Assembly: GCA_963834565.1 (NCBI GenBank)
Contig: CAWICF010000002.1
Span: 944,410 to 1,008,409 of the forward strand
Length of the DNA stretch: 64,000 bases
Direction: 5' to 3'
From: an uncultured Acidobacteriaceae bacterium
GTDB taxonomy: Bacteria; Acidobacteriota; Terriglobia; Terriglobales; Acidobacteriaceae
Made by a program: the position numbers and the translations under genes. This document shows, in pieces, positions 1,383-14,480 of this stretch (position 1 is the first letter of the stretch; each line of letters opens with the position of its first letter). Below the pieces are notes generated by a model, which saw only the letters and a list, made by a program, of their open reading frames with translations, did not search any database and had not been told where the DNA came from.

Positions 1383-1887
1383 CCTTCGTCATCGGCAAAA
1401 AGGGTGCGGAGCAGCATCTGCGGACTCTGGGTTGTTGGCACGTTCCGTTTCACACGGGGGAGTTCAACGGCTGTTGCATGAAAGGAACTGCTTTCATCTG
1501 GCTTGCTTGCTGTTCCGTGGCTGAAACCATGGTAACGCCACTTGAAACCAATATATCAGTACGTTACGGGCAGTCAATGTGGAATTCGGGTGCCTGAAGT
1601 GATCGCATGCTTACTTCCGTGTTTTCCACAGGCAACAGGCCAGTAGCCGCTCCGCTCCGATTGCTTCTTTGGCCATACTGTATCGATTCGGGACACCTGC
1701 GGCGACTTCCACATCCAGGCACGAATGCCGCAGTCAATACCATGCCGGCACTGATCGCTTTGCGCATCGCCCTCCTCCGAATTTCGATGGATCTGTCAGC
1801 GGGTGCCCCCGGTCCCTGCATTTGGGAACCCGGGGAACAAATCGTGTGTGCTTCGTCATCGACTTTGAACCCGGGAAATCAAGCGGC

Positions 1888-3270
1888 TCACTGCCCCGGC
1901 TGCAGGTGCATCTTCAGGAACTGCACGTAAATGTCCCAGTCGCTCGGAACCATGCCGTGCCCGCCGTCGTGCATGTAGTAGGAAAGATCGTGAAAGATCG
2001 GCGTCTTCGCTGCCGGCCACACATCGGTATCCAGCGGATCTTTGCCGAGCAGCTTGTACACCGGCCCCGCCGCTACCTCTGCCAGAAACTCGCCCTTCGG
2101 ATCGGACCAGTAATCTGTGTTCCCCGTCTGCAGCAGCAGCGGCCGCGGCGCAATCAACGCCACCAGCAGATTCGCATCCATTGGTGCCTTGTCCGGGAAT
2201 CCCGCCCAGTGCCCATAGTTCGCCGCGAATTGATATGGAAAGCGTGTCGGCGCCGTCAGGTGCGCAATGGTTTCACCGTAATCGCGATGGCTCAGCGCGG
2301 CGCCGCCCTCGCCCGAGCAGCTCGCAATCATTGCCGCAAATCGTTGATCGTGCGCACCTGCCCACATCACCGTCTTGCCGAGCCGCGAAACGCCATGGAT
2401 CGCCACTCGTTTCGCGTCGATCGCCGGGTCCGTCTCGAAGTAATCCTGGACGCGGCTCATTCCCCACGCCCATGCGGCAATCGATCCCCAATCATCAGGC
2501 GGACGGTCCGGCAGTCCGGGCTTCAAGTAATGCGCACGGATTCCATTCCAAAAGCCGTTCAGATAATCCGGATCGACGTCGCCGTAGTAATAAGTCGCTA
2601 CACCAAATCCGGCATCGAGCAGCGGCTCCACATCGAGCCTCCCGAACCCGCGACCTTTTGGCGGCATCACCTTGGTATTCGTCTTCGGGTCCCAGACTTC
2701 TTCCGGCGTAATCCCCGGATCCTCAACCGAGTTTTGAATTGCGCCAAAGTTGATCGAAAAAAACATCGGCACCGGCTTGTGCGCATTCGCCGGCAGGTAG
2801 ATCAGCAGATGAATCTTCGGCCACGCCGGATCCTTCGAAAACGAAATCGTCACCTGTTTGCGAATCGCCTTTCCATCCAGCGCGGGCGTTCCCTTGTCCG
2901 TCACGTCGAAGCTCTCGTCCGCCGGCCGTCCCGGATCGCGTCCGTATTGCTGCGTCTCAAAAATCTCTTCGATCTCCGGCCGCCGTTTCGTCCACCACGT
3001 CTTTGCGTTCTTCACCGGTTTTCCGTCGTTCAATACCAGCGGGTCCACCAGCGTGTACGTCCCCACTTTCGCCTCGTCGTAGTTCACCGGAATCCCCGCC
3101 ACGACCGACGGCGGAGTTTGCATGGCGCGCATCGCCGAAGCCGGAAGTCCCGGCACCGTCGTCGGCGGCGGAGTGGGCGGCGCGGTCGGTGCCTGGGCCC
3201 GGTGCGTTTGCACCCCCAAAAGCAGCGAAACAAACACACAGGGAACGATGAAAGCAGGCCTGAATTGCAT
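1888..3270 (-). CDS. Secreted CE15-like glucuronoyl/acetylxylan esterase (alpha/beta hydrolase)
   Basis: Signal peptide MQFRPAF...AQA. Motifs WAWGMSRVQDY, HGVSRLGK (CE15 G-x-S-R-x-GK), CSGEGGAAL, LIAPRPLL, GGHG. Confidence 0.8.
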   Translation of the reverse strand: MQFRPAFIVPCVFVSLLLGVQTHRAQAPTAPPTPPPTTVPGLPASAMRAMQTPPSVVAGIPVNYDEAKVGTYTLVDPLVLNDGKPVKNAKTWWTKRRPEIEEIFETQQYGRDPGRPADESFDVTDKGTPALDGKAIRKQVTISFSKDPAWPKIHLLIYLPANAHKPVPMFFSINFGAIQNSVEDPGITPEEVWDPKTNTKVMPPKGRGFGRLDVEPLLDAGFGVATYYYGDVDPDYLNGFWNGIRAHYLKPGLPDRPPDDWGSIAAWAWGMSRVQDYFETDPAIDAKRVAIHGVSRLGKTVMWAGAHDQRFAAMIASCSGEGGAALSHRDYGETIAHLTAPTRFPYQFAANYGHWAGFPDKAPMDANLLVALIAPRPLLLQTGNTDYWSDPKGEFLAEVAAGPVYKLLGKDPLDTDVWPAAKTPIFHDLSYYMHDGGHGMVPSDWDIYVQFLKMHLQPGQ

Positions 3271-4245
3271 TGGAATCCCTCCAGGGGAGCATCTTTCAAA
3301 CACGATTTGCTAATGGAAATAAGTTGCCGACTGAAAAGCTAGTTTTCCGCCCATGCCGCTGTCAAGCTTTTGGGCAGCTCAGCCATCTTCGACCGCGAAA
3401 GTTGACTCCAGTATTCGAATTCTTCAGTTCTCTCAGGCCAATCCAGCAACTCAGCCACTGCTGCGAATCCGCGGGCCGCCCCGCTCAAACGCCTTTTCGA
3501 CCCTCGATCTCCGCCCGGCCAACTTCCTGGAACCCGCCTTATCACTCTCGCCCTAACAGAATCTGCACAGATTCGCTCCATTCGTGCACCCAACACGCAA
3601 TTCCACTTGCCAGGTGCCCTTTCTCCCAGGACCATTCTCGCTGCGCGCCGATTCACGCAACTTTCTGTCGGTTTTCACCTCGCCGAATGGACCGCAAATT
3701 GACGTCGCATTTTCTTCGTGCCATTTGAGCACCGCTGGAGCTATACTCTGTTCACTTTCTGAGTGGATTCGCGGCCCGCATTCGTGCGGTTACTTATTGG
3801 CGACACTCGTACTCCTATGACTCGTATAGGAACTTTGTAGAGTAAGAACGCAAATCAAAGCAGCTTCTCCTCAACCGGATCCCCCACTGGTTAAATAGCT
3901 GCAATACAACAATCAGTACCTTGGCTAATGCTCGATCTGAGGCTTTTTTCATTGCGCCGTCGTCTCTCATGCAGCGATTCCGGTATTACTCTTCTGGCCG
4001 TTCTTTGCAGGCCAAGCTTGACGTTCAGAAGACCCGTAATGCCGGCGTCGCAACTTCCCTCAAGCCCCCGTGTTACAAGGGGCATGATGTGGAGCGATTG
4101 ATCGGAACCCGGTGCTACGGCAGCCACAATAATGTTGGTTTGGGTTCAGGTTGAATAAGCCATGCGGCGGAAGTTTTTGGGGCCGCGTTTACGCGCGTGG
4201 CAATTGGAGGATCGCCCAAGTTCACCTGTTTCACCTGGAGCGCTT

Positions 4246-6675
4246 ATGAAAGCGTACTTCGTCGGTTCGTGTGTGCCTTTGTGTGTGTTGGTATGTGCCC
4301 TTGCTGGGTCCGTGGCATCGGCTGAAACGCAGCGCGCACTTCTCATCGGCATTAACACCTATCAACCCGCAGGCACAACCGCTGAACACCCCGCCGGCTG
4401 CATCTACGGCCGCTGCGAGCTCGGCTCCTTCCAGAATCTCGACGGCTCTGTGAACGACGCACAGGCTATGGCCGATCTGCTTACCAGTCCCAAGTTTGGT
4501 TTTCCCGCCACCAACGTCGTTCTGCTCACCAATCCCGCGGCTCCTCAGCCGCGTCCCGGCATCACGGTATTGCCCGCCGATCAAACCACGCACGACGGCA
4601 TCCTGGCGGCGATGCAGAAGTATCTCGTCGATCTCCCGCAGAAGGGCGACTCTGTGGTTTTCTACGACGCGAGTCATGGTTCACTGCGCGTGAACAGCAA
4701 AGGCAACAAGCTCACGGTGCTCGTCAACGGAAAATACGTCCACGCCGACAGCACGCTGGTTCCTTCCGACGCGTACAAAGGCGGCTACGACGTGCGTGAC
4801 CGCGAAATGACGCGCATCTTCAACGCCGCTCTCAATAAGGGTATTCATCTCACCGTCATCTTCGATAGTTGTCACTCCGGCGGAATCAGCCGCGGCATCG
4901 GCCCGGTCTATCGCGAGCGCGCGCTCGCCTTCGATCCGCGCGACATCGACGAAGCGCCTGATGCGCTGCCCAATGGTCAGCCTGCGCCCGCGCCGACCGA
5001 TCGCTCCGACAATCCAGCTCTCGTTTTCTCCGCCGCCCAGCAGGATCAAACAGCAAAAGAAATGCCGGTCAGCGACAAAGCAACTGACCCGCACGGCGCC
5101 TTTACCGCCGCACTTCTTGAGGCGCTGCAGACGCTGCCCGCCGACACTCCTGCTGAGCTCGTCTACCAACGAGTTAAGGCTGTCCTCGAAGGTGGCAGCG
5201 TCCCCGACCAGGAGCCCGATCTTGACGCGTCTGCCGCGCGCCGCCAGCAACCACTCTTCGGTGGATCCGCTGCAGGCTCAAGCAAGATTCGCACCGCCGC
5301 TCTTGGCACAGACGATGACGGTAGTGTGACTCTCGACATTGGTAAGGTCTCCGGAGTAGGCGTCGGCACGGAGTTCACTGGAATGACTGCGAACTCCGCC
5401 GGCCAGAAAGTGGTCCTTCGCATAACCGATCTCAACGGTATCGCCCGCTCCTCAGCCCAGGTCGTCAGCCCCACCGGAGCAAAGGTCGCGGCAGGCGATG
5501 TCTTCGAACTCACCAAGTGGGTCCCGGCAGACAATCCTCCGTTGAGCATCTGGCTTTGGCCCTCCAACCTATCTGAGAGCGACATCCTCGCGGCAGCAGC
5601 ACAAGTGCAGGCATCCGGTGCCACGCTCGTCTCCGATCCTGCTGAACAGCAATGGACGCACGTCATCAATTGGGATGGTTCGCACTGGACGCTGCAGCAG
5701 GCAGGCGCATCCACGTCCGTCAATCTCGGTGCAACGCTCTCCGCCCAGGCAATTAAGCAGAGCCTTCCCGCTGGCGCAAAGCTCTGGGTAAATCTTCCGG
5801 CATCGACGGAGCTTGCCACCAAGCTCACTCCTGCCGGATCAGATAGTGCCGTCCAGCACGCTGACAGCCTGACGAACGCCATGTACGCGCTCACCGGCGT
5901 TGTCACGGCAAATGGACCTGCCTATGCGTGGTACCACAAGAGCGAGCTCGCCGCCGGCCCGCCTTCGCCGAATGCTCCTGCGCACAGCCCGGGCTGCTCC
6001 GCAACCTCGCAGTACCCGGTGCGCTCTGATTGGGTGCCCGTCGCGAGCCCCGACGCCATCGATGCCGGAAGCACCAAGCTCAACAACTATTCGTCTCTGC
6101 TCGCCAAGGTGCACGGCTGGCTGGAACTCGCCAACAGTCCGGCCGACGCATCAACTGACGACTACTTCTCCCTAGGGTTGATTCCTTCCACCGGCACAGA
6201 TGTCGTCGACACTGCTCAGCCCGTCCATCAGGGAGATTCACTCAAGATGGCTCTTCAGTCCAGCTCGCGCGTCATTGAGCGCCGCTGGGTCTACGTGCTC
6301 GATATTGACTGCCACGGTCAGGGAACGGTACTGTATCCCCACAACTACGCTGAAAACCAGTTTCCAAACGATGCCGATAGCGGGCGCCAGTTTATTCTTC
6401 CCGGCGCTCCCACTTTACGTATCGGCCCGCCGTACGGAGTTGACACATTAATTCTGCTCAGCACTGCGCAGCCGTTGCCCGATCCGTACGCACTGAATTT
6501 TGAAGGCGTAGCTTCACGCGGAACGCGCGGCGTGGCTTCGCCCTTGGAGAAGTTGCTGAACCAGGCCAGTGGTGGCACCCGCGGATTTTCGGGCGAAGTG
6601 CCAACCAACTGGGGTATCGGGCTCATGACCGTTCACAGCGAACCCAAGCAGGCTGCTGCGAACGGGAGCAATTGA
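4246..6675 (+). CDS. Secreted caspase-like peptidase C14 with C-terminal DUF4384-like domain
   Basis: GGAG RBS then ATG at 4246; signal peptide. RALLIGIN, catalytic ASHG and DSCHSG, FSAAQQDQTAKE, HGAFTAALL. C-terminal YVLDIDCHGQGTVLYP...GPPYGVDTLILLST resembles DUF4384. Confidence 0.85.
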   Translation: MKAYFVGSCVPLCVLVCALAGSVASAETQRALLIGINTYQPAGTTAEHPAGCIYGRCELGSFQNLDGSVNDAQAMADLLTSPKFGFPATNVVLLTNPAAPQPRPGITVLPADQTTHDGILAAMQKYLVDLPQKGDSVVFYDASHGSLRVNSKGNKLTVLVNGKYVHADSTLVPSDAYKGGYDVRDREMTRIFNAALNKGIHLTVIFDSCHSGGISRGIGPVYRERALAFDPRDIDEAPDALPNGQPAPAPTDRSDNPALVFSAAQQDQTAKEMPVSDKATDPHGAFTAALLEALQTLPADTPAELVYQRVKAVLEGGSVPDQEPDLDASAARRQQPLFGGSAAGSSKIRTAALGTDDDGSVTLDIGKVSGVGVGTEFTGMTANSAGQKVVLRITDLNGIARSSAQVVSPTGAKVAAGDVFELTKWVPADNPPLSIWLWPSNLSESDILAAAAQVQASGATLVSDPAEQQWTHVINWDGSHWTLQQAGASTSVNLGATLSAQAIKQSLPAGAKLWVNLPASTELATKLTPAGSDSAVQHADSLTNAMYALTGVVTANGPAYAWYHKSELAAGPPSPNAPAHSPGCSATSQYPVRSDWVPVASPDAIDAGSTKLNNYSSLLAKVHGWLELANSPADASTDDYFSLGLIPSTGTDVVDTAQPVHQGDSLKMALQSSSRVIERRWVYVLDIDCHGQGTVLYPHNYAENQFPNDADSGRQFILPGAPTLRIGPPYGVDTLILLSTAQPLPDPYALNFEGVASRGTRGVASPLEKLLNQASGGTRGFSGEVPTNWGIGLMTVHSEPKQAAANGSN

Positions 6676-6763
6676 ATTTGCGCCATCATCATTCGGCTTT
6701 ATGAATTTCGTGAGCAGCCGGCGGCTCAATGAAAATACTCCGGCAAAGGATGGGGGTAGAAAG

Positions 6764-7978
6764 ATGGCAACTTCAAGACGCGATTTCCTTGCCGATGCAT
6801 CTGTCGTCGGCATGCTGGCTGCAATGCTTCCCGGATTGGCGGCTGCTCAGGATTCAGCGGTGGCTCACACTTCGACCAGCAACGCCGAAGCGGACGACGC
6901 GCCGCACGACTCCTTCGGTTTCTGGAACGGATTCTTCGATTCAGTGAACCCATATGCTGCGGACTACGGAAACAAGGCCGCAACACGCGGACCCGCAGAC
7001 CAGCTTCCAGATCCCCAGGCACAGACGCAGTACCTGCACTACGACTCTGACAACAAGCGCCTCCGCTATGCGTCGGACATTAAGAAAGAAGAACTGCTCG
7101 ACCATGACGGCGACGTCGGTGTCAGCATAGCGATTGCCCAATTTCGCCCAGGATCAGGGGAAAACAATCTCAAGGCGTCGCAACTGCGCATCGACACGAC
7201 ACAGGTTCACCCGTTCGTGGACATTATTACTCCGCTCGCCTGGTCGGCCATTGCATCCATCAACCCGAGCAAGATGGGTACGGTTTCCCTTGACCAACTC
7301 GGGTTCAAGTCACCGCAGGCAATGCAGGGCACAAGCAAGATCCTGCTCACTCGGGGAACGGGAAAGCTGGCTGTTAATGTATCCAGAGCCCAGGCCGAAT
7401 CGATGTTCATGAAGGCTCTCAACATCATGCTCCAGGGCGCCAAGATCGCGGCACCGATACTTACCCTTCCGGCCATCAGTGTGCCCGCGCTGAGCACATT
7501 TACTGAGATGATGAGCTACTGGGAAGATCGCACCCGGTTCGTCATGTCGGGTAATCTGACCACCGCAGTCGCTACCCAGCAGGCCTTAAACGATCCGGAT
7601 CGGGAACCCACGTATATGGGCCTGCTCTCCGGCGACTACCTCATGGTTCCGCAGAAACATGTGGATGAGCTTGCCAAGGCGCTGCCAAATCTCGATCTCA
7701 TGCAGGGCTACCTGGTGGCCAAGGATGCCGACCCGAACCTGCCCCTTGCGCAAAGGGCGCAGAGTTCGGTTCCCGGTATCACGTATGCGTCGATGCACGT
7801 CACGGTAGCGCCCTCGAATACCGATCTGAGCAAGCCGCCGATTTGGGCTAACTCAAGCTCCGGTAGCAGCAGCTCCAGCTCGTCTTCCAGCTCGAAGAAG
7901 AGCAGCTCCAGCAGTTCGAGTGGATCGAAGAGCGGATCGACTAGTTCGGGTAGTACTGGCAGCTCGAAGAGCCAGTAG
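6764..7978 (+). CDS. Tat-exported hypothetical protein with Ser-rich C-terminal tail
   Basis: Twin-arginine leader SRRDFL...AAA. The last ~42 aa are almost all Ser/Gly/Lys/Thr. Confidence 0.75.
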   Translation: MATSRRDFLADASVVGMLAAMLPGLAAAQDSAVAHTSTSNAEADDAPHDSFGFWNGFFDSVNPYAADYGNKAATRGPADQLPDPQAQTQYLHYDSDNKRLRYASDIKKEELLDHDGDVGVSIAIAQFRPGSGENNLKASQLRIDTTQVHPFVDIITPLAWSAIASINPSKMGTVSLDQLGFKSPQAMQGTSKILLTRGTGKLAVNVSRAQAESMFMKALNIMLQGAKIAAPILTLPAISVPALSTFTEMMSYWEDRTRFVMSGNLTTAVATQQALNDPDREPTYMGLLSGDYLMVPQKHVDELAKALPNLDLMQGYLVAKDADPNLPLAQRAQSSVPGITYASMHVTVAPSNTDLSKPPIWANSSSGSSSSSSSSSSKKSSSSSSSGSKSGSTSSGSTGSSKSQ

Positions 7979-8086
7979 TTAAGCGTGCGTAAATTGTGCG
8001 ACGGCAGCCCGTCTCTACGGGTATGCTGGGTGCAACGCAGCCGGGGGGTGCCGGCGGCGTTGCCGAACGGTCAGTCGGGGGTCAAT

Positions 8087-9586
8087 ATGAGCCGTGCTTT
8101 CTTATCAAGGGTGATCCTTTGCCTGAGTGCAGGGGCGCTTGCCGCGTTACCCGCCCGGGCGCAAAGCTTCGGGGCCGCGAAGGATAAGGTCACTCTCCAC
8201 CGCAAACTTCCTGCTCTCATCCACCTCCCCGGCAGCAGCATCAAGGTTGTCGTTCCGGGACAGGGTATGGTGGGTGACGTGTCGTACGATCTGCAGGCGC
8301 TGCTTGAAACGGAGATTCTCAAGGACGATCCGGACCTGCGCGTGGAGCCCAATAATCCTGACACAATTCTCACCTGCAACATCACGGGCTTCTACCATCC
8401 AGCGCCCACGATAACCACAGAGCCGGGGCTTGCTCTTACCAAGAATGGTCCGAACACGCAGCAATTAGAGCGGATCACGGGTAGCCTTAGCGTTGCCTTC
8501 CAGGCCAAATCGGCCACTGGCCGCACCTTGATCTCCGACAACGTCACTTCAAAGTACGACGAGCAGTTTGATAGTTCAGGAGTCTCCACCTCCCACGGCG
8601 TCATGGGGTCGCTCAGCGGTACCTGGGGCAAGTTGAAAGGCCAAAAGACCGAAGAAAACACTCCTCCCACCGATGCCGAGTTGCGTTCCAGGCTGCTGCT
8701 CGATGTGGTGCAGCAGATCGCCGAGCATATTGTGAATACGAATGAGGCGATCGACGTCTTTCTGGCCAAGGAAAAAGGCCCGATCGAGGAAGGCGACAAG
8801 CAAGCGGACGGTGAACTCTGGGAACGTGCTCTTGAAACCTTCGAGACTGCGCAGCCGTCCGGCAAGCCGGAAGAGGATGCATACCGCCTTTACAACATCG
8901 GCGTAGCGTATGAGGCGCTTGCCTACCAGGCAGACGACCCCAAGATGGCAATGAAGTACCTTGACCAGGCGGCCATCAACTACGGCAAGGCGATCGATGC
9001 AAAGCCCAGCGAAAAGTACTTTGTGAATCCGCAAGAGCGCATTGAAACGGCAATTGCGCACTACAAAGTCTTTGAAGAAGAGAAGAAGCCGCCGCCCGCG
9101 CCGGTCGAATCTGCCAGCACTGAGCCAGTCGGCCCGACAGCGACCAGAGGGCTCTCGAACAACCTGGTGATTAGCATGGTGAAGGCCGGAATGGACGACA
9201 ACACCGTCATACAGGCCATCCACGCAGCCAAGGCGGTCACTTTCGATCTCACCCCTGGGGGCGAGCAGCAGCTAACCAGTAATGGCGTAAGCGCCCGCGT
9301 CCTGGCGGCAATGAAGACGCAGGCGGCGACAAACTCTCAAGCGCCCTCCTCGCCCAGAGGACTCACCAATAACCAAGTAATTGCCATGATCAAGTCTGGC
9401 ATGGACGACGACACGGTAGTGACGGCCATCCGCGCTACCAAGGTGGTCGACTTCGATCTCACGCCGACGGGCCAGCAACAGCTTACCGGCAGCGGCGTCA
9501 GCAAGCTCGTATTGACTGCGATGAAGACTCGCGCTGCCAGAAAACCGGCCGCGGCAGGAACTGTAAAACAGGCGGCATCGCAATGA
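8087..9586 (+). CDS. Secreted TPR-containing protein with two tandem ~57-aa C-terminal repeats
   Basis: Signal peptide ending ARA-Q. TPR-like YRLYNIGVAYEALA...AAINYGKAIDAKP. Duplicated GL(S/T)NN..I.M.K.GMDD.TV..AI...FDLTP.G.QQL...GVS..VL.AMK. Confidence 0.75.
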   Translation: MSRAFLSRVILCLSAGALAALPARAQSFGAAKDKVTLHRKLPALIHLPGSSIKVVVPGQGMVGDVSYDLQALLETEILKDDPDLRVEPNNPDTILTCNITGFYHPAPTITTEPGLALTKNGPNTQQLERITGSLSVAFQAKSATGRTLISDNVTSKYDEQFDSSGVSTSHGVMGSLSGTWGKLKGQKTEENTPPTDAELRSRLLLDVVQQIAEHIVNTNEAIDVFLAKEKGPIEEGDKQADGELWERALETFETAQPSGKPEEDAYRLYNIGVAYEALAYQADDPKMAMKYLDQAAINYGKAIDAKPSEKYFVNPQERIETAIAHYKVFEEEKKPPPAPVESASTEPVGPTATRGLSNNLVISMVKAGMDDNTVIQAIHAAKAVTFDLTPGGEQQLTSNGVSARVLAAMKTQAATNSQAPSSPRGLTNNQVIAMIKSGMDDDTVVTAIRATKVVDFDLTPTGQQQLTGSGVSKLVLTAMKTRAARKPAAAGTVKQAASQ

Positions 9587-10830
9587 GACCGAATTACCGA
9601 CTCGCTGTTCTTGTGCCGGCGATACTTCTGGCCGGGCTTTGTGTGGCATCGCGCTCATACAGCGATGATGGCCGTTGCGGCTCCGGCCAGGATCTCGTCG
9701 TCCAGGCCCTCGAGCGCGTCACCCCGCAAAGCCCCGACAGCGACTTCGTCGACGCACTCGAACTGCTCAAACACGCAGTCTCTACCTGCCCTGAGCTGGG
9801 TGATGCGTGGTACTACCGCAGCCTCGTCGAGCAGCGTCTCGGCCATGCATCGCTCGCCAGGTACGCCATGGATAAGGCGCGCTTCAACGGCTCTGAAGCT
9901 CTCGACCAAAACCTCAATCCGCTTATTCTCTCTACGCCGGCCTCGCGCGGATTCAGCCAGGAAGCCAGTACCCCCGCCGCTCCTGCTGCGCCTCCCGTCA
10001 AGCCCGGCCCTGTCCAGCAGAAGTGGGCGCTTATCATCGGCATCGGCAACTTCACTGATGCCCAGGTTCCCAGGCTCAACTTCACCACCGCCGACGCCGA
10101 TGCCTTCGCCGCTGCTCTCAAAGATCCCAACATCGGTCAATTCCCTGCCGACAACGTGCAGGAGCTCACCAACGAAAACGCCACTACCAAAAACATAAAA
10201 GAAAAACTCAACTGGATCGCGCGTCAGGCCCAGCCCAACGATCTCGTCATCATTTATGTCGCGACGCATGGCACGCCCCGCACCATCGATTCTGCCGGAG
10301 GCGCGAATTATCTCGTCACGTACGATACTGAGGTTTACAAAGACGGCAGCTTCGATGAAGACGCCATGTATGCCACGGCGTATCCCATGATCGATCTCGC
10401 CAACGCGGTTGCCACGCGCATGAAAGCACTACGTACCGCCGTCTTTCTCGACACCTGCTATTCCGGTGGTTCCGTCGCCGGCGCCGCGCCTTCCCAGCAA
10501 ATCGTCACCGAGGCTCCTTCGAAAGAAATGCTGTCGCACATGACCGACGGAACTGGGCGCATTGTCATGGCTGCCAGCCAGGTTGATCAGGAATCGCTCG
10601 AGAGCCCCGATCTCCACCACGGCTATTTCACCTACTATCTGCTTCAGGCGCTGAAAAACGGCAAAGGACAAACTCCTCTCAGTCAGGTCTTCGCGTCGGT
10701 GGAGCAACAGGTATCGAAGAGCGTAGCCGCGAAAGGCGCTCACCAGGACCCTGTCATGAATCGAAGTTCTTCCGATGCCGACTTCGCGCTCCGCTCCGCC
10801 TCCGCCGACACGGCGTCCGCCAAGCCTTGA
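9583..10830 (+). CDS. Secreted TPR + caspase-like peptidase C14
   Basis: ATGA overlap with the upstream gene; signal peptide. TPR (GDAWYYRSLVE), KWALIIGIG, catalytic ATHG and LDTCYSG, HGYFTYYLLQAL. Confidence 0.87.
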   Translation: MRPNYRLAVLVPAILLAGLCVASRSYSDDGRCGSGQDLVVQALERVTPQSPDSDFVDALELLKHAVSTCPELGDAWYYRSLVEQRLGHASLARYAMDKARFNGSEALDQNLNPLILSTPASRGFSQEASTPAAPAAPPVKPGPVQQKWALIIGIGNFTDAQVPRLNFTTADADAFAAALKDPNIGQFPADNVQELTNENATTKNIKEKLNWIARQAQPNDLVIIYVATHGTPRTIDSAGGANYLVTYDTEVYKDGSFDEDAMYATAYPMIDLANAVATRMKALRTAVFLDTCYSGGSVAGAAPSQQIVTEAPSKEMLSHMTDGTGRIVMAASQVDQESLESPDLHHGYFTYYLLQALKNGKGQTPLSQVFASVEQQVSKSVAAKGAHQDPVMNRSSSDADFALRSASADTASAKP

Positions 10831-10861
10831 CGGATCAGCCACTCCGGCGTGGAAGCTTGTC

Positions 10862-13800
10862 ATGAATCGTACTTGCATCTTCGGTTTCGCGATCGCCTTA
10901 ATAGTCTGCTCGCTTGCTGCCATCTCTTTCGCGCAAACTACCAGCCTTCAAGACACGATTTCGCAGCACGAGCAGCAGCTTGCGCAGGCGCGCTCCAGCC
11001 GCAACATGCACGAAGTCGTGACGGAACTCAACATCCTCGGCTCGTACTACCGGCAAGCCGGCCAGCTGCAAAAAGGGCTCACCTGTCTCAACGAGGCCTT
11101 GCCAATAGAGCAACGTGCCTCCAGCCTCTACGGCCAGGCGACGACGCTCAACACCATGGGCCGCATCTACACTGACCTCGGCCAGGAAGACAAAGCGCTC
11201 TCAACGCTCAATCAAGCGCTGCCCATGTGGCGCGCTCTTGGTCAGCGCATCGGCGAAGCCGACACGCTCAGCTACATCGGCAAGGTCTACAACGACCTCG
11301 GCCAGCACGACGACGCGCTCAAGGTCCTCAATCAATCAATGGCCATCTGGCAGTTGATCGACAACCCCGCCGCAAACACTGCGCCGTCCGGCGCTTCACA
11401 ACAAAGCCCCACCTCAGGCGGCAGCCGGTCGAACATCAGTGTTGCCGGCGAAGCGGGAACCCTCGACAACCTGGGCCGGACTTACTCCGACGAAGGACAG
11501 GGCCTCGAAGCTCTCAAATACTTCAATCAGGCTCTGCCGCTCTTCAACCAGATCGGCGAACGTGGTGGCGCGGCGCTCGTCCTCAATGACATGGGCCCAG
11601 CTTTCGCGGCAATTGGCCAGAAGCAGAAGGCGCTTGAAAGCTACAACAAGGCGCTCGCGACCTTTCGCGAGATCGGCAGCCGCCAGGGCGAAGCGCTGAC
11701 TCTTGAAAACACCGGCTGGCTCTATCGCGATCTCGGTCAGAACCAGACTGCTCTCGACTACTACAACCTGGCACTGCCTATCTGGCGCGAGGTCGGCAAT
11801 CGCAGCGGAGAAGCGCGCGCGCTCAGCGATATCGGCCGTGCCTACGCCGATCTCGGCCAGCCTCAGAAAGCTCTCGAGTACGCGAGCCAGGCGCTGCCCA
11901 TCTTTCGCGAAACCGTCAGCCGTCGCGGTGAAGCCATGACCCTGAACAACATGGGCCGCGATCATTCCGACCTCGGCGAATCGAAAGATGCTCTCGATCT
12001 CGATCTTCAATCCCTCGCCATCTGGCGCGAGATCAAAGATCAGCGCAACGAAGCCGGATGCCTCATGACCATCGCCTGGGCTTACTCGCAGATGAAGCAG
12101 CCGGAAACCTCGTTGGCCAGCGCCCTCGCAGCTCTCTACCTCGCCAGGTCCACGGGCGATCCGCAGATTGAGGGCGGCGTCGAAACCTCAATGATGCTCG
12201 GCTTTCGCAAGCAGCAGCATCCAGAGGAGGCCATCTTCTTCGGCCTTGAAGCGGTCAACAACTACGAGCAGATCCGCAAAAACATCACCGGCCTCGACAA
12301 GCAGCTCCAGGCTGGCTACGCGCAATCTCGCGCCGGCATTTACCGCATGCTCGCCGAGTTGCTCGTCCAGTCCGGCCGACTCGGGCAGGCCGAGCAGATC
12401 CTCGATCTCCTGAAGGAGCAAGAACTGAAAGACGTCGTCGCCGGCGCGACCGCAAGCGCCTCAGCAGGCATCGAGCCGCTCAAGCTTTCTCCTGCGCAGC
12501 AGCAGGTCGAGTCACAACTGCCAGACATTGAGAAGAAAGCGCGCGACGTAGAAGAAGACACGCTTGCCTGCGTGCAGATTCAATCGAAGACGACTCACAC
12601 CCCGGATGATGACGCCCAGCTCAAATCGCTCGCCGCAAAGCTGCAACAGGAAGAAGGCGAAATCAGGTCCGCTCTTTTTGACATCATCTACCCTGAGCTC
12701 GACGCGCAATCCGCGCCGGGCAACGCTTCGAACGATACGACAAAAAGCTTTCTACAGGATTCGCTCGCCAAGCTCGGTTCCAACGTCGTCGGCATTCGAG
12801 TGCTGCTCGGCGACGATCACGCCTACGCCATCGTAGTCACCGCCGCCTCGCGCAAAAGTATCGTCTTACCAGCCACTTCTGCACAGATCCGCGATAAATC
12901 ACTTGAAGTTCTAAAAGCCATCGGTTCGCCTGCCACCGATCCCCGACCGCAGTTAAACCAGCTCTACGACATGATCGTCGCGCCCGTCGAAAGCCAGCTC
13001 AAATCCATCGAGTCCGCTCCCGGCGCAAAAGGCACCGTCCCCACGCTGCTTTGGTCGCTCGACGACGCGTTGCGCTACGTTCCCATGGGCGCTCTCTACG
13101 ACGGCCAACACTACATGGTCGAGCGCTTTCACAATGTCCTCTTCACCGCCGAAAGCTATGGTCACATGACTGATGCGCCGCTCGAGAGCGGTCAACAGCC
13201 GAGCGCACTCGCCATGGGACTCTCCAAAAGCTACGGCGGCCTTCCTGCCCTCCCCGGCGTCATTCCTGAGCTTGACTCCATCGTCCGCGACCCCGCAGTT
13301 CCGGACTCGCACGGCCCCATGCAAGGCAAGCTCCTGCCCGACGATCGGTTCACTCTCGCCGCGCTCAAAGCCGCCCTCGGCGCCGGCAGCAATTTCTCTG
13401 TCGTGCACATCGCCAGCCACTTTGTCCTCGAGGCCGGCAGCGGTGACGAGCCGTTCCTTATGATGGGCGGCGACAACACCGGAAACGGGAACGGCTTCGA
13501 GTGGAATCTTTCCGAGATGGAAAACTCCTCCATCGCCTTCCACGGCACCCGGTTGCTGACCCTTTCAGCTTGCAGCACCGCCAAGGACTACAAATCCAGA
13601 AATGGCTTTGAAATGGATAGCTTGGGGATGGTTGCTCAACAAAAAGATGCGGAAGCTGTCCTGGCGACGCTCTGGGATGTCAACGATCTCAGCACCAGCC
13701 GCATCATGAGCGACTTCTACGATCGCTGGGTCACGAATCCGACTCAGGGCAAAGCCGAAGCTCTCCGCCAAGCCCAGCTTGCGTTTATCCACGGCACCGC

Positions 13801-13930
13801 CGCTACGCCCGCAGCCAAGACCGGCCGCGGATTTGAGACCACCGATCAGTCGCCCGCCCAAAACTCTTCCCTAGGCTACGCCCACCCTTATTACTGGGCG
13901 CCCTTCGTGCTCATCGGGAACTATCAGTAG
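10862..13930 (+). CDS. Secreted TPR-array + CHAT (caspase-related) domain protein
   Basis: Signal peptide MNRTCIFGF...SFA-Q. About nine TPRs (EA.TL.N.G..Y.DLGQ...AL....QAL..WR). CHAT motifs LRYVPMGAL, VVHIASHF, LTLSACST, ATLWDVND, KAEALRQAQL, HPYYWAPFVLIG. Confidence 0.92.
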   Translation: MNRTCIFGFAIALIVCSLAAISFAQTTSLQDTISQHEQQLAQARSSRNMHEVVTELNILGSYYRQAGQLQKGLTCLNEALPIEQRASSLYGQATTLNTMGRIYTDLGQEDKALSTLNQALPMWRALGQRIGEADTLSYIGKVYNDLGQHDDALKVLNQSMAIWQLIDNPAANTAPSGASQQSPTSGGSRSNISVAGEAGTLDNLGRTYSDEGQGLEALKYFNQALPLFNQIGERGGAALVLNDMGPAFAAIGQKQKALESYNKALATFREIGSRQGEALTLENTGWLYRDLGQNQTALDYYNLALPIWREVGNRSGEARALSDIGRAYADLGQPQKALEYASQALPIFRETVSRRGEAMTLNNMGRDHSDLGESKDALDLDLQSLAIWREIKDQRNEAGCLMTIAWAYSQMKQPETSLASALAALYLARSTGDPQIEGGVETSMMLGFRKQQHPEEAIFFGLEAVNNYEQIRKNITGLDKQLQAGYAQSRAGIYRMLAELLVQSGRLGQAEQILDLLKEQELKDVVAGATASASAGIEPLKLSPAQQQVESQLPDIEKKARDVEEDTLACVQIQSKTTHTPDDDAQLKSLAAKLQQEEGEIRSALFDIIYPELDAQSAPGNASNDTTKSFLQDSLAKLGSNVVGIRVLLGDDHAYAIVVTAASRKSIVLPATSAQIRDKSLEVLKAIGSPATDPRPQLNQLYDMIVAPVESQLKSIESAPGAKGTVPTLLWSLDDALRYVPMGALYDGQHYMVERFHNVLFTAESYGHMTDAPLESGQQPSALAMGLSKSYGGLPALPGVIPELDSIVRDPAVPDSHGPMQGKLLPDDRFTLAALKAALGAGSNFSVVHIASHFVLEAGSGDEPFLMMGGDNTGNGNGFEWNLSEMENSSIAFHGTRLLTLSACSTAKDYKSRNGFEMDSLGMVAQQKDAEAVLATLWDVNDLSTSRIMSDFYDRWVTNPTQGKAEALRQAQLAFIHGTAATPAAKTGRGFETTDQSPAQNSSLGYAHPYYWAPFVLIGNYQ

Positions 13931-14003
13931 CGATATCGATCAGCTTGTCACCGACATTCCATTACCTGCGGTGCTAGAATCCCGGCCCGCGGAGGGAAAT
14001 GCA

Positions 14004-14480
14004 ATGCGTACGATCCGGCTCCTGGCAATCATCGCGCTCATCTTTTTACCGGCAGTCTCATTTAGCAGCGAGCGTTACGACGGAAATTGGCTCACCAAGC
14101 TCAGTTGCCCGCCCAAAGGAAACACCGAAGGCTACACCTGGCAATTTGTCAGCGTGATCCAGAATGGCAACCTTCACGGAGAGCGTGGCACTGCAGGCCA
14201 GCCCGGTTACTTCACGATCGATGGCGCCATCGGCGACGACGGCAACGCCAAGCTCGCTGCCAGCGGCGTCATTGCCTCACGGGAATATGCGCGCGGCGTT
14301 TTCGCCCACCAGGGCGAGCCTTACAGTTACGACGTCAAAGCGCAATTCAAAGACACGACCGGAACAGGAACGAAGGGCCAAGGCCTCGGCATCGTCGGCC
14401 GCACCTGCACCTTCGAGTTCACAAAGCAGTCACCTGCTTCACCAACCGGGGTCGAGTCTGGAAAAGCTCAGTCCAAATAA
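14004..14480 (+). CDS. Small secreted beta-rich hypothetical protein
   Basis: GGAGGG RBS and signal peptide; two Cys near the mature ends. An extended -10-like TGCTAGAAT lies at 13972-13980. Confidence 0.7.
   Translation: MRTIRLLAIIALIFLPAVSFSSERYDGNWLTKLSCPPKGNTEGYTWQFVSVIQNGNLHGERGTAGQPGYFTIDGAIGDDGNAKLAASGVIASREYARGVFAHQGEPYSYDVKAQFKDTTGTGTKGQGLGIVGRTCTFEFTKQSPASPTGVESGKAQSK

Follow-up and report, generated by a model that had tools for sequence, protein, structure and literature searches.

A shared Arg-Gly motif as a candidate protease cut site in an exported caspase/CHAT gene cluster of Terracidiphilus

Introduction

Six adjacent genes in the genome of a soil acidobacterium (placed in Terracidiphilus, Acidobacteriota, by the names of its homologues) encode two caspase-like proteins of the Peptidase C14 family, a tetratricopeptide repeat (TPR) protein with a CHAT peptidase domain, and three further proteins. 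They lie at positions 4246–14480 of the window, the 64,000-nucleotide stretch of DNA analysed here, all on the + strand and separated by short gaps or overlapping. Short motifs centred on Arg-Gly recur in their products, and the question raised by the locus is whether the proteases of one cluster share a cut site through which they could activate each other. A sequence-only reading of this DNA had proposed an x-R-G-hydrophobic motif, located mostly in linkers, with R|G as the common scissile site.

We consider it plausible, and as yet unproven, that the shared motif is the recognition and cut site of the cluster's Arg-specific C14 proteases. Our confidence, which draws on sequence comparison, structure models and analogy with known enzymes, is somewhat short of even. 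The motif itself is found in flexible segments of four proteins, with one or more copies in each of the three proteases. Conservation, rather than enrichment, is the real evidence that it is shared.

Results

An Arg-Gly motif in the products of one cluster

The six genes of the cluster are as follows.

4246 to 6675, + strand: caspase 1, an exported C14 peptidase of 809 amino acids counted from MKAYF.
6764 to 7978, + strand: a protein of an unannotated family, exported by twin-arginine translocation (Tat), with a Ser-rich C-terminal tail.
8087 to 9586, + strand: p3, an exported protein without a Pfam match, with two C-terminal repeats of about 65 amino acids and RGL at the start of each.
9583 to 10830, + strand: caspase 2, exported, in which a Pro/Ala-rich linker joins a helical N-terminal domain to a C14 peptidase domain.
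10862 to 13930, + strand: the TPR-CHAT peptidase, exported and with a signal peptide; its homologues have 1022 amino acids.
14004 to 14480, + strand: a small exported protein that contains YARGV.

Signal-peptide-like N-termini were found on all six products, from which we conclude that the products are exported. All nine motifs listed by the sequence-only reading were recovered in the translated open reading frames (ORFs) where it had placed them, and the sites, together with the loop that holds three of them, are given below.

4885 to 4899, + strand: ISRGI of caspase 1, with the R codon at 4891; R244-G245, 7 residues past the catalytic Cys (DSCHSGGISRG).
6514 to 6534, + strand: SRGTRGV in the caspase 1 tail, which holds two RG sites, R786 among them.
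6574 to 6588, + strand: GTRGF in the caspase 1 tail; R807-G808.
6514 to 6606, + strand: the caspase 1 tail loop, made up of SRG-TRG, a short helix (SPLEKLL) and GTRGF, directly before the last beta-strand.
6980 to 6994, + strand: ATRGP of the Tat protein; R96-G97, in the N-terminal tether between the FW helix and the core.
9140, + strand: ATRGL of p3, at the start of one of the repeats.
9350, + strand: SPRGL of p3, at the start of the other repeat.
9940 to 9954, + strand: ASRGF of caspase 2; R122-G123, at the end of the N-terminal domain and directly before the variable linker.
13820 to 13837, + strand: TGRGFE of the CHAT protein; R1018-G1019, in a variable loop that follows the last helix of the CHAT domain and precedes its last strand (HPYYWAPF).
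14286 to 14300, + strand: YARGV of the small protein, inside a conserved domain.

The codons vary between sites (CGC GGA, CGC GGC, AGA GGG and others, with AGA in p3), so the motif is not one repeated DNA word. A repeated word such as CCGCGG was ruled out as its cause because codons and flanks differ. Across the ten RG sites, the residue before the Arg (P2) was Ser or Pro in ISRG, in the ASRG of both caspase 1 and caspase 2, and in SPRG. It was Thr at four sites, namely three TRG (caspase 1 and the Tat protein) and the ATRG of p3, Gly at the CHAT site and Ala in YARGV. Further RG dipeptides, R218 of the Tat protein and two in the TPR array, were unremarkable.

The suggestion that most sites lie in Pro/Ser/Ala-rich linkers held in part. 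Variable sequence adjoins the caspase 2 and CHAT sites, which are islands of conservation; the caspase 1 tail sites occupy a highly conserved stretch that is predicted to be disordered, and YARGV sits within a conserved domain.

Conservation of the motif in the proteases

Most sites were retained in orthologous clusters of the same genus (five genomes, 65–80% identity). Within the genus, exactly one RGF[S/E] occurred in each of the three proteases, a pattern that suits cross-activation. Six sites were conserved beyond the genus: caspase 1 R244-G245, R786 and R807-G808, caspase 2 R122-G123, CHAT R1018-G1019 and Tat-protein R96-G97. Both p3 sites and YARGV were not. The hydrophobic residue after the Gly held only within the genus and among close relatives.

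Conservation in caspase 1 was assessed in an alignment of 31 sequences with identities down to 29% (alignment A2). Searching the phylum with the caspase 1 tail brought up full-length orthologues from eight more genomes, at 28–39% identity, and the alignment combines these with closer homologues. The R244-G245 pair (DSCHSGxxxRG) was invariant in all 31 aligned sequences, with P2 varying among S, A, L and C, and a second Arg about nine residues past it was at least 90% conserved. The tail was kept throughout the phylum in the form GVx[ST]RG ... PLxxLL ... G[TS]R[GSA] ... PxxWS, with insertions and deletions around the motifs. Its sites were at least 90% conserved across the alignment, and the residue after the Gly was variable.

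In caspase 2, R122 was present in 119 of 119 sequences and G123 in 117; position 124 was F or I, and residues 125–137 were variable. Caspase 2 orthologues at 48–50% identity had ARGLE. Among 120 homologues of the CHAT protein, the island was made up of G (119), R (119), G (120), F (109) and E (107) between variable flanks, and distant homologues at 28–33% identity retained the Arg as RG, RS or RT. Arg-to-Lys swaps were found at some sites.

The motif in the tether of a Tat-exported protein family

The Tat protein proved the most informative part of the analysis. It had no match in Pfam, NCBIfam or PADLOC, and when 1.84 billion cluster representatives were searched exhaustively (E < 1e-3, 50% clustering), 258 representatives of its family came up. 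The twin-arginine residues were invariant in the family alignment (A1), and the alignment had a consensus RG in which the Gly was at least 90% conserved. Members also carry a Ser/Gly/Lys-rich low-complexity stretch, either C-terminal or inserted in the middle of the protein.

We counted motifs in the tether, taken as the 50 residues past the conserved FW motif, in 65 full-length distant representatives with a twin-arginine leader. An RG was present in 42 of the 65, compared with a mean of 17.6 and a maximum of 27 in 500 shuffles, and with 10.6% in other segments of the same proteins. The narrower [ST]RG was present in 22 (shuffled mean 2.3, maximum 8; 1.3% in other segments), and nine more tethers held KG without RG. 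Because these sequences lie outside the original observation, this result is free of after-the-fact pattern choice.

An AlphaFold2 model of the Tat protein, built from 63 sequences (predicted TM-score, pTM, 0.70), showed a short FW helix with a predicted local distance difference test (pLDDT) score of 74–86, a coil of about 30 residues and a confident core. The TRG lies in the coil, at a pLDDT of about 58. The fold had no significant Foldseek match in the PDB (none below E = 0.1) or in BFVD. A cytolysin fold (CDC/MACPF) was considered and not used, with TM < 0.1 and a probability of at most 0.02.

Genomic neighbourhoods of Tat-family genes

Genes of the Tat family were found beside different members of the cluster in different lineages. 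They adjoin caspase 1 orthologues in distant genomes (loci L031 and L035). In another genus (L047 and L048), the Tat gene stands beside p3 and caspase 2, with no caspase 1 or CHAT gene in the roughly 18 kb examined. In another family of the phylum (L049, genome G421), it stands beside a TPR-CHAT gene. An independent search with the Tat protein found a C14 or CHAT gene adjoining the Tat-family gene in 5 of 5 other Acidobacteriota genomes. The cluster is modular, and the Tat-protein gene is its common element across Acidobacteriota genera.

Two neighbourhoods had features of their own. The TPR-CHAT protein at L049:4398–7562 is 56% identical to that of the window over its full length, while the neighbouring Tat protein is only 25% identical, and this difference suggests lateral transfer of the CHAT gene. 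At L052:5782–7506, on a metagenome contig (member P0495), a Tat-family gene is divergently paired with a gene for a protease with FHA and trypsin-like (Trypsin_2) domains, and genes for a kinase and a PP2C phosphatase lie on the protease's side.

Active sites and predicted structure of the proteases

The cluster enzymes are ordinary members of the C14 and CHAT families. Both C14 proteins exceed the cut-off of Peptidase C14 (PF00656; 21.4 bits), caspase 1 with 67.2 bits and caspase 2 with 79.0 bits. The TPR-CHAT peptidase scored 158.5 bits for CHAT (PF12770; cut-off 24) and 182 bits for TPR_12. Caspase 1 consists of a type-II-metacaspase-like core, beta-rich middle domains, a DUF4384 domain (29 bits) and the conserved tail. 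Caspase 2 was not a member of NCBIfam caspase_w_EACC1, at 104 bits against a cut-off of 140.

The catalytic residues are in place in all three enzymes. The His/Cys dyad of caspase 1 lies in ASHG and DSCHSG, with H144 and C209 invariant in the alignment of 31 sequences, and that of caspase 2 lies in ATHG and DTCYSG. The CHAT motifs HIASHF and LSACST were conserved in 120 homologues. The D-x-C Asp, which forms the acidic S1 pocket in metacaspases, is present in both C14 proteins. When the p20 region of caspase 1 was aligned to Yca1 and TbMCA2, LxGxxND and FDSCHSG were kept. D207 and D71 were invariant. The Asp of xND is one that we take, from TbMCA2, to be an acidic residue of the S1 pocket.

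The AlphaFold2 model of caspase 1 (pTM 0.67) gave its best Foldseek matches to AtMC9 and AtMC4, at E ~1e-11 over 360–410 aligned columns; other structural matches were GSU0716, MALT1, legumain and caspase-9. Two stretches of the model had pLDDT below 50. Residues 215–229 (mature numbering) include the invariant R-G, at their start, and the second Arg, a loop in which R216 and R225 are conserved. Residues 759–787 (mature numbering) include all three tail RG sites around the short helix. The last strand, at mature residues 790–799, was confident. According to the model, the caspase 1 tail forms a loop that is highly conserved although disordered, as functional linear motifs usually are. Searches of PDB sequences with the CHAT protein and with caspase 2 returned TPR matches only, or none. 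The TPR array of the CHAT protein resembles peptide-binding TPRs of the LGN/Pins type.

Gene starts, flanking genes and other features of the locus

The longest ORFs of caspase 1 and the CHAT protein begin 28–29 codons before the starts used by homologues (809 and 1022 amino acids). These additions cover window positions 4162–4245 for caspase 1 and 10775–10861 for the CHAT gene, and the true starts are likely 4246 and 10862. The start of p3 is likely 8087, 34 codons inside its longest ORF. The p3 repeat (GLxNxxVIxMVKxGMDDxTV..., window 9140–9530) matched no family model, and orthologues carry one or two copies of it. The small exported protein has a paralogue at 43% identity elsewhere in the genome (contig C2:310470–310871).

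Genes on either side of the cluster are unrelated to it: upstream lies a NusG-like gene, and downstream are genes for an M20 peptidase, a hydrolase and a DUF4147 protein. Also upstream, long ORFs overlap on opposite strands (window 1669–3342, + strand, and 1888–3303, - strand), and the + strand ORF of 557 amino acids had no Pfam match. PADLOC defence-system models matched the cluster only generically, to caspase and TPR proteins, and no gasdermin, Csx30 or cas gene was found: the Tat protein matched nothing in Pfam, in PADLOC or by fold, and the neighbouring genes are not cas genes.

Discussion

A possible shared cut site

The proposal that R|G is a common scissile site found partial support in the intact dyad and S1 Asp, the metacaspase-like fold and the six conserved flexible islands. 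As a cut site, the motif would have a core of Arg (in some cases Lys) at P1, preceded at P2 by Ser, Thr or Gly and followed at P1' by Gly, for which distant relatives have Ser, Ala or Thr. The C14 proteases would process themselves and each other at this motif. A cut at the border of domain and linker would remove the N-terminal domain of caspase 2. A nick in the loop after the catalytic Cys of caspase 1 would parallel the activation of caspases and type II metacaspases, and the Tat protein may be matured by a cut in its tether that frees the N-terminal FW helix. The Arg specificity of these enzymes, cleavage between R and G, the question of which protein cuts which, and the consequence of cutting are all matters that we infer.

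A bolder extension centres on the Tat family, whose members may be pro-proteins with an FW helix tethered by [S/T]-R|G. They would be activated outside the cytoplasm, by cuts in this tether, through interchangeable exported proteases, which would also cut one another at the shared motif: caspase 1, caspase 2, TPR-CHAT and, at one locus, a trypsin-like enzyme. We regard this as quite unlikely. If true, it would be an extracytoplasmic caspase-type cascade, an envelope counterpart of caspase-activated effectors such as gasdermins.

Relation to known systems

All characterised non-caspase C14 enzymes require Arg or Lys at P1 because of their acidic pocket (PMC5756287). The basic-P1 preference and linker self-processing that the sequence-only reading had stated for metacaspases and orthocaspases agree with that review and with data on AtMC4. 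AtMC4 cleaves itself at several Lys and Arg residues of its linker, and Lys225 is held in the pocket of Asp137, the Asp of D-S-C. Together with AtMC9, which also cleaves itself after Arg or Lys in a flexible linker, this type II (C14B) enzyme is the best structural match to the caspase 1 model (PDB 6w8r, 8a53, 9n3d). Caspase 1 has in common with both the His/Cys dyad, the D-x-C Asp and, past the Cys, a flexible segment with conserved basic residues. In contrast to these plant enzymes, the cluster proteins are bacterial and exported, and caspase 1 has about 450 extra residues, including DUF4384, has Ser in place of the pocket Cys and has its candidate site only 7–16 residues past the catalytic Cys.

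Among bacterial enzymes, the orthocaspase MaOC1 of Microcystis aeruginosa was the only biochemically characterised C14 protein as of a 2017 review, and its self-processing is needed for activity (PMC5756287). Its known substrate is an antitoxin (PMC7935541). MaOC1 resembles the enzymes studied here in being a bacterial C14 protein, and it is Arg-specific and self-processing. It differs in being cytoplasmic and consisting of the p20 domain only, and the literature describes neither a common substrate motif nor a family of exported partners for it. The substrates of the human paracaspase MALT1 have the consensus LxP/S-R|G (PMC4659944), in which P2 Ser or Pro, P1 Arg and P1' Gly form the same core as ASRG, ATRG and SPRG. 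However, MALT1 is eukaryotic, cytoplasmic and activated by oligomerisation, and its hydrophobic P4 is mostly absent from the cluster.

Bacterial gasdermin operons use caspase-like proteases. Their logic, and that of the type III-E system Craspase, in which the cytoplasmic TPR-CHAT protein Csx29 is associated with Cas7-11 and cuts Csx30, is similar to the one considered here, with a protease encoded beside a partner that has a flexible cut site. The difference is that every protein of the present cluster has an export signal. We found no account in the literature of what exported bacterial caspase homologues naturally cut, nor of a fully exported arrangement, a Tat-exported partner family or shared S/T-R-G islands.

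Alternative explanations

Several results weigh against a shared cut site, some of them by favouring an alternative in which the motif has no common function. Each R-G would then be kept for a local structural or catalytic reason; for example, that of caspase 1 might shape the active-site loop, that of caspase 2 might cap a domain, and the one in the CHAT loop might make a turn. The shared motif would be coincidence combined with post hoc naming. We place this explanation on the unlikely side. The frequency of RG speaks for it and went against the sequence-only reading. The background was a crude proteome of 3977 non-overlapping ORFs from the whole genome, together with a crude secreted subset, and relative to it RG was not enriched in the five large proteins, with 13 occurrences against 14.7 expected (11.1 from the secreted subset). 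The narrower pattern [ST]-R-G was enriched, with 9 occurrences (8 if p3 starts at 8087) against 1.5 expected, or 1.0 from the secreted subset (Poisson p = 3.4e-5). Taken over all counts, RG came to 13–15 where about 15 were expected, and [ST]-R-G to 8–9 where 1.0–1.6 were expected. In a genome-wide ranking by [ST]RG, this locus was the top-scoring block and caspase 1 the top single protein. We note that the pattern was picked after the data had been seen, and that 23% of random five-gene blocks held some equally enriched pattern in a look-elsewhere test of 4000 [class]-X-Y patterns. The enrichment by itself therefore cannot carry the claim, and we rejected it as proof. Low Arg content as a form of self-protection was likewise rejected, since the Arg content is ordinary for secreted proteins (13th–41st percentile).

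The sites themselves are also uneven. Three of the nine are unconserved and were rejected as part of a code. At the p3 sites, the Arg is replaced by K, N or D or is missing in orthologues; YARGV, retained as YARGV or YSRGM at 54% identity or more, becomes YVPGR at 42–45%, and the site in the small protein probably stands outside the motif set. Flanking residues differ among the proteins, P2 and P2' are only loosely defined, and a hydrophobic P2' is not general. A hydrophobic P4 occurs only in VASR|G (caspase 1 R786), with G, A, P, K or R elsewhere. The invariant R244-G245 pair, with R244 at Cys+7, may serve the active site or catalysis instead of being cut. A calcium-site reading of R244, with the Arg standing in for a Ca-binding Asp of TbMCA2, was considered and not used as evidence. 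The specificity-pocket Cys (TbMC2 Cys92, AtMC9 Cys29) is replaced by Ser in caspase 1 (LDGSVND) and by Thr/Ala in caspase 2 (FTTADAD); its loss lowers activity in AtMC9 and TbMC2 (PMC5756287). Finally, the Tat family keeps its motif on two long metagenome contigs where no gene for a C14 or CHAT protein lies within 8 kb, and one metagenome contig has the FHA-trypsin-like gene instead; a universal link between the Tat family and C14 or CHAT genes was rejected on this basis. Coincidence in turn has to accommodate Arg-Gly islands in variable or disordered segments of four unrelated families encoded in one cluster, and structural residues would be unusual at pLDDT below 50–60. It also sits poorly with the RG of the Tat tether, which lies far above both shuffled and within-protein controls. 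The Arg-to-Lys swaps and small P1' residues (G, S, A) of distant homologues are more readily explained by a protease site than by a constraint of the fold.

The motif could also be one for docking or a pseudo-substrate, binding the TPR array or the N-terminal domain of caspase 2, or occupying the S1 pocket of a C14 protease, and thereby assembling or silencing a periplasmic complex. We consider this improbable, although the LGN/Pins-like character of the TPR array and the linker Lys of AtMC4, an autoinhibitor that occupies the S1 pocket without being cut, both argue for it. Strong conservation extends across some 30 residues of the caspase 1 tail loop, beyond what a minimal cut site needs. A cut in that tail, or in the CHAT loop, would fall before the last beta-strand and release no domain, which is a further difficulty for a cut site and, for the tail loop, a point in favour of docking. 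By contrast, distant homologues retain only the Arg and a small next residue, with no longer epitope, and the motif is kept at loci that have the Tat gene with caspase 1 or caspase 2 and no TPR-CHAT gene in the sequence examined. Since the pseudo-substrate loops of metacaspases are eventually cut themselves, this explanation overlaps with that of a shared cut site.

Implications

If the sites are not real, the locus illustrates the limits of motif-spotting, with a third of the look-alike sites lost in orthologues. In either case, it provides a short list of candidate cut sites, with one for each protease and a further one in an unannotated but widespread family of Tat-exported proteins. Should the sites be real, bacteria would run a caspase-style activation cascade in the cell envelope, and its recognition core, Ser/Thr-Arg|Gly, would resemble the one used by human MALT1.

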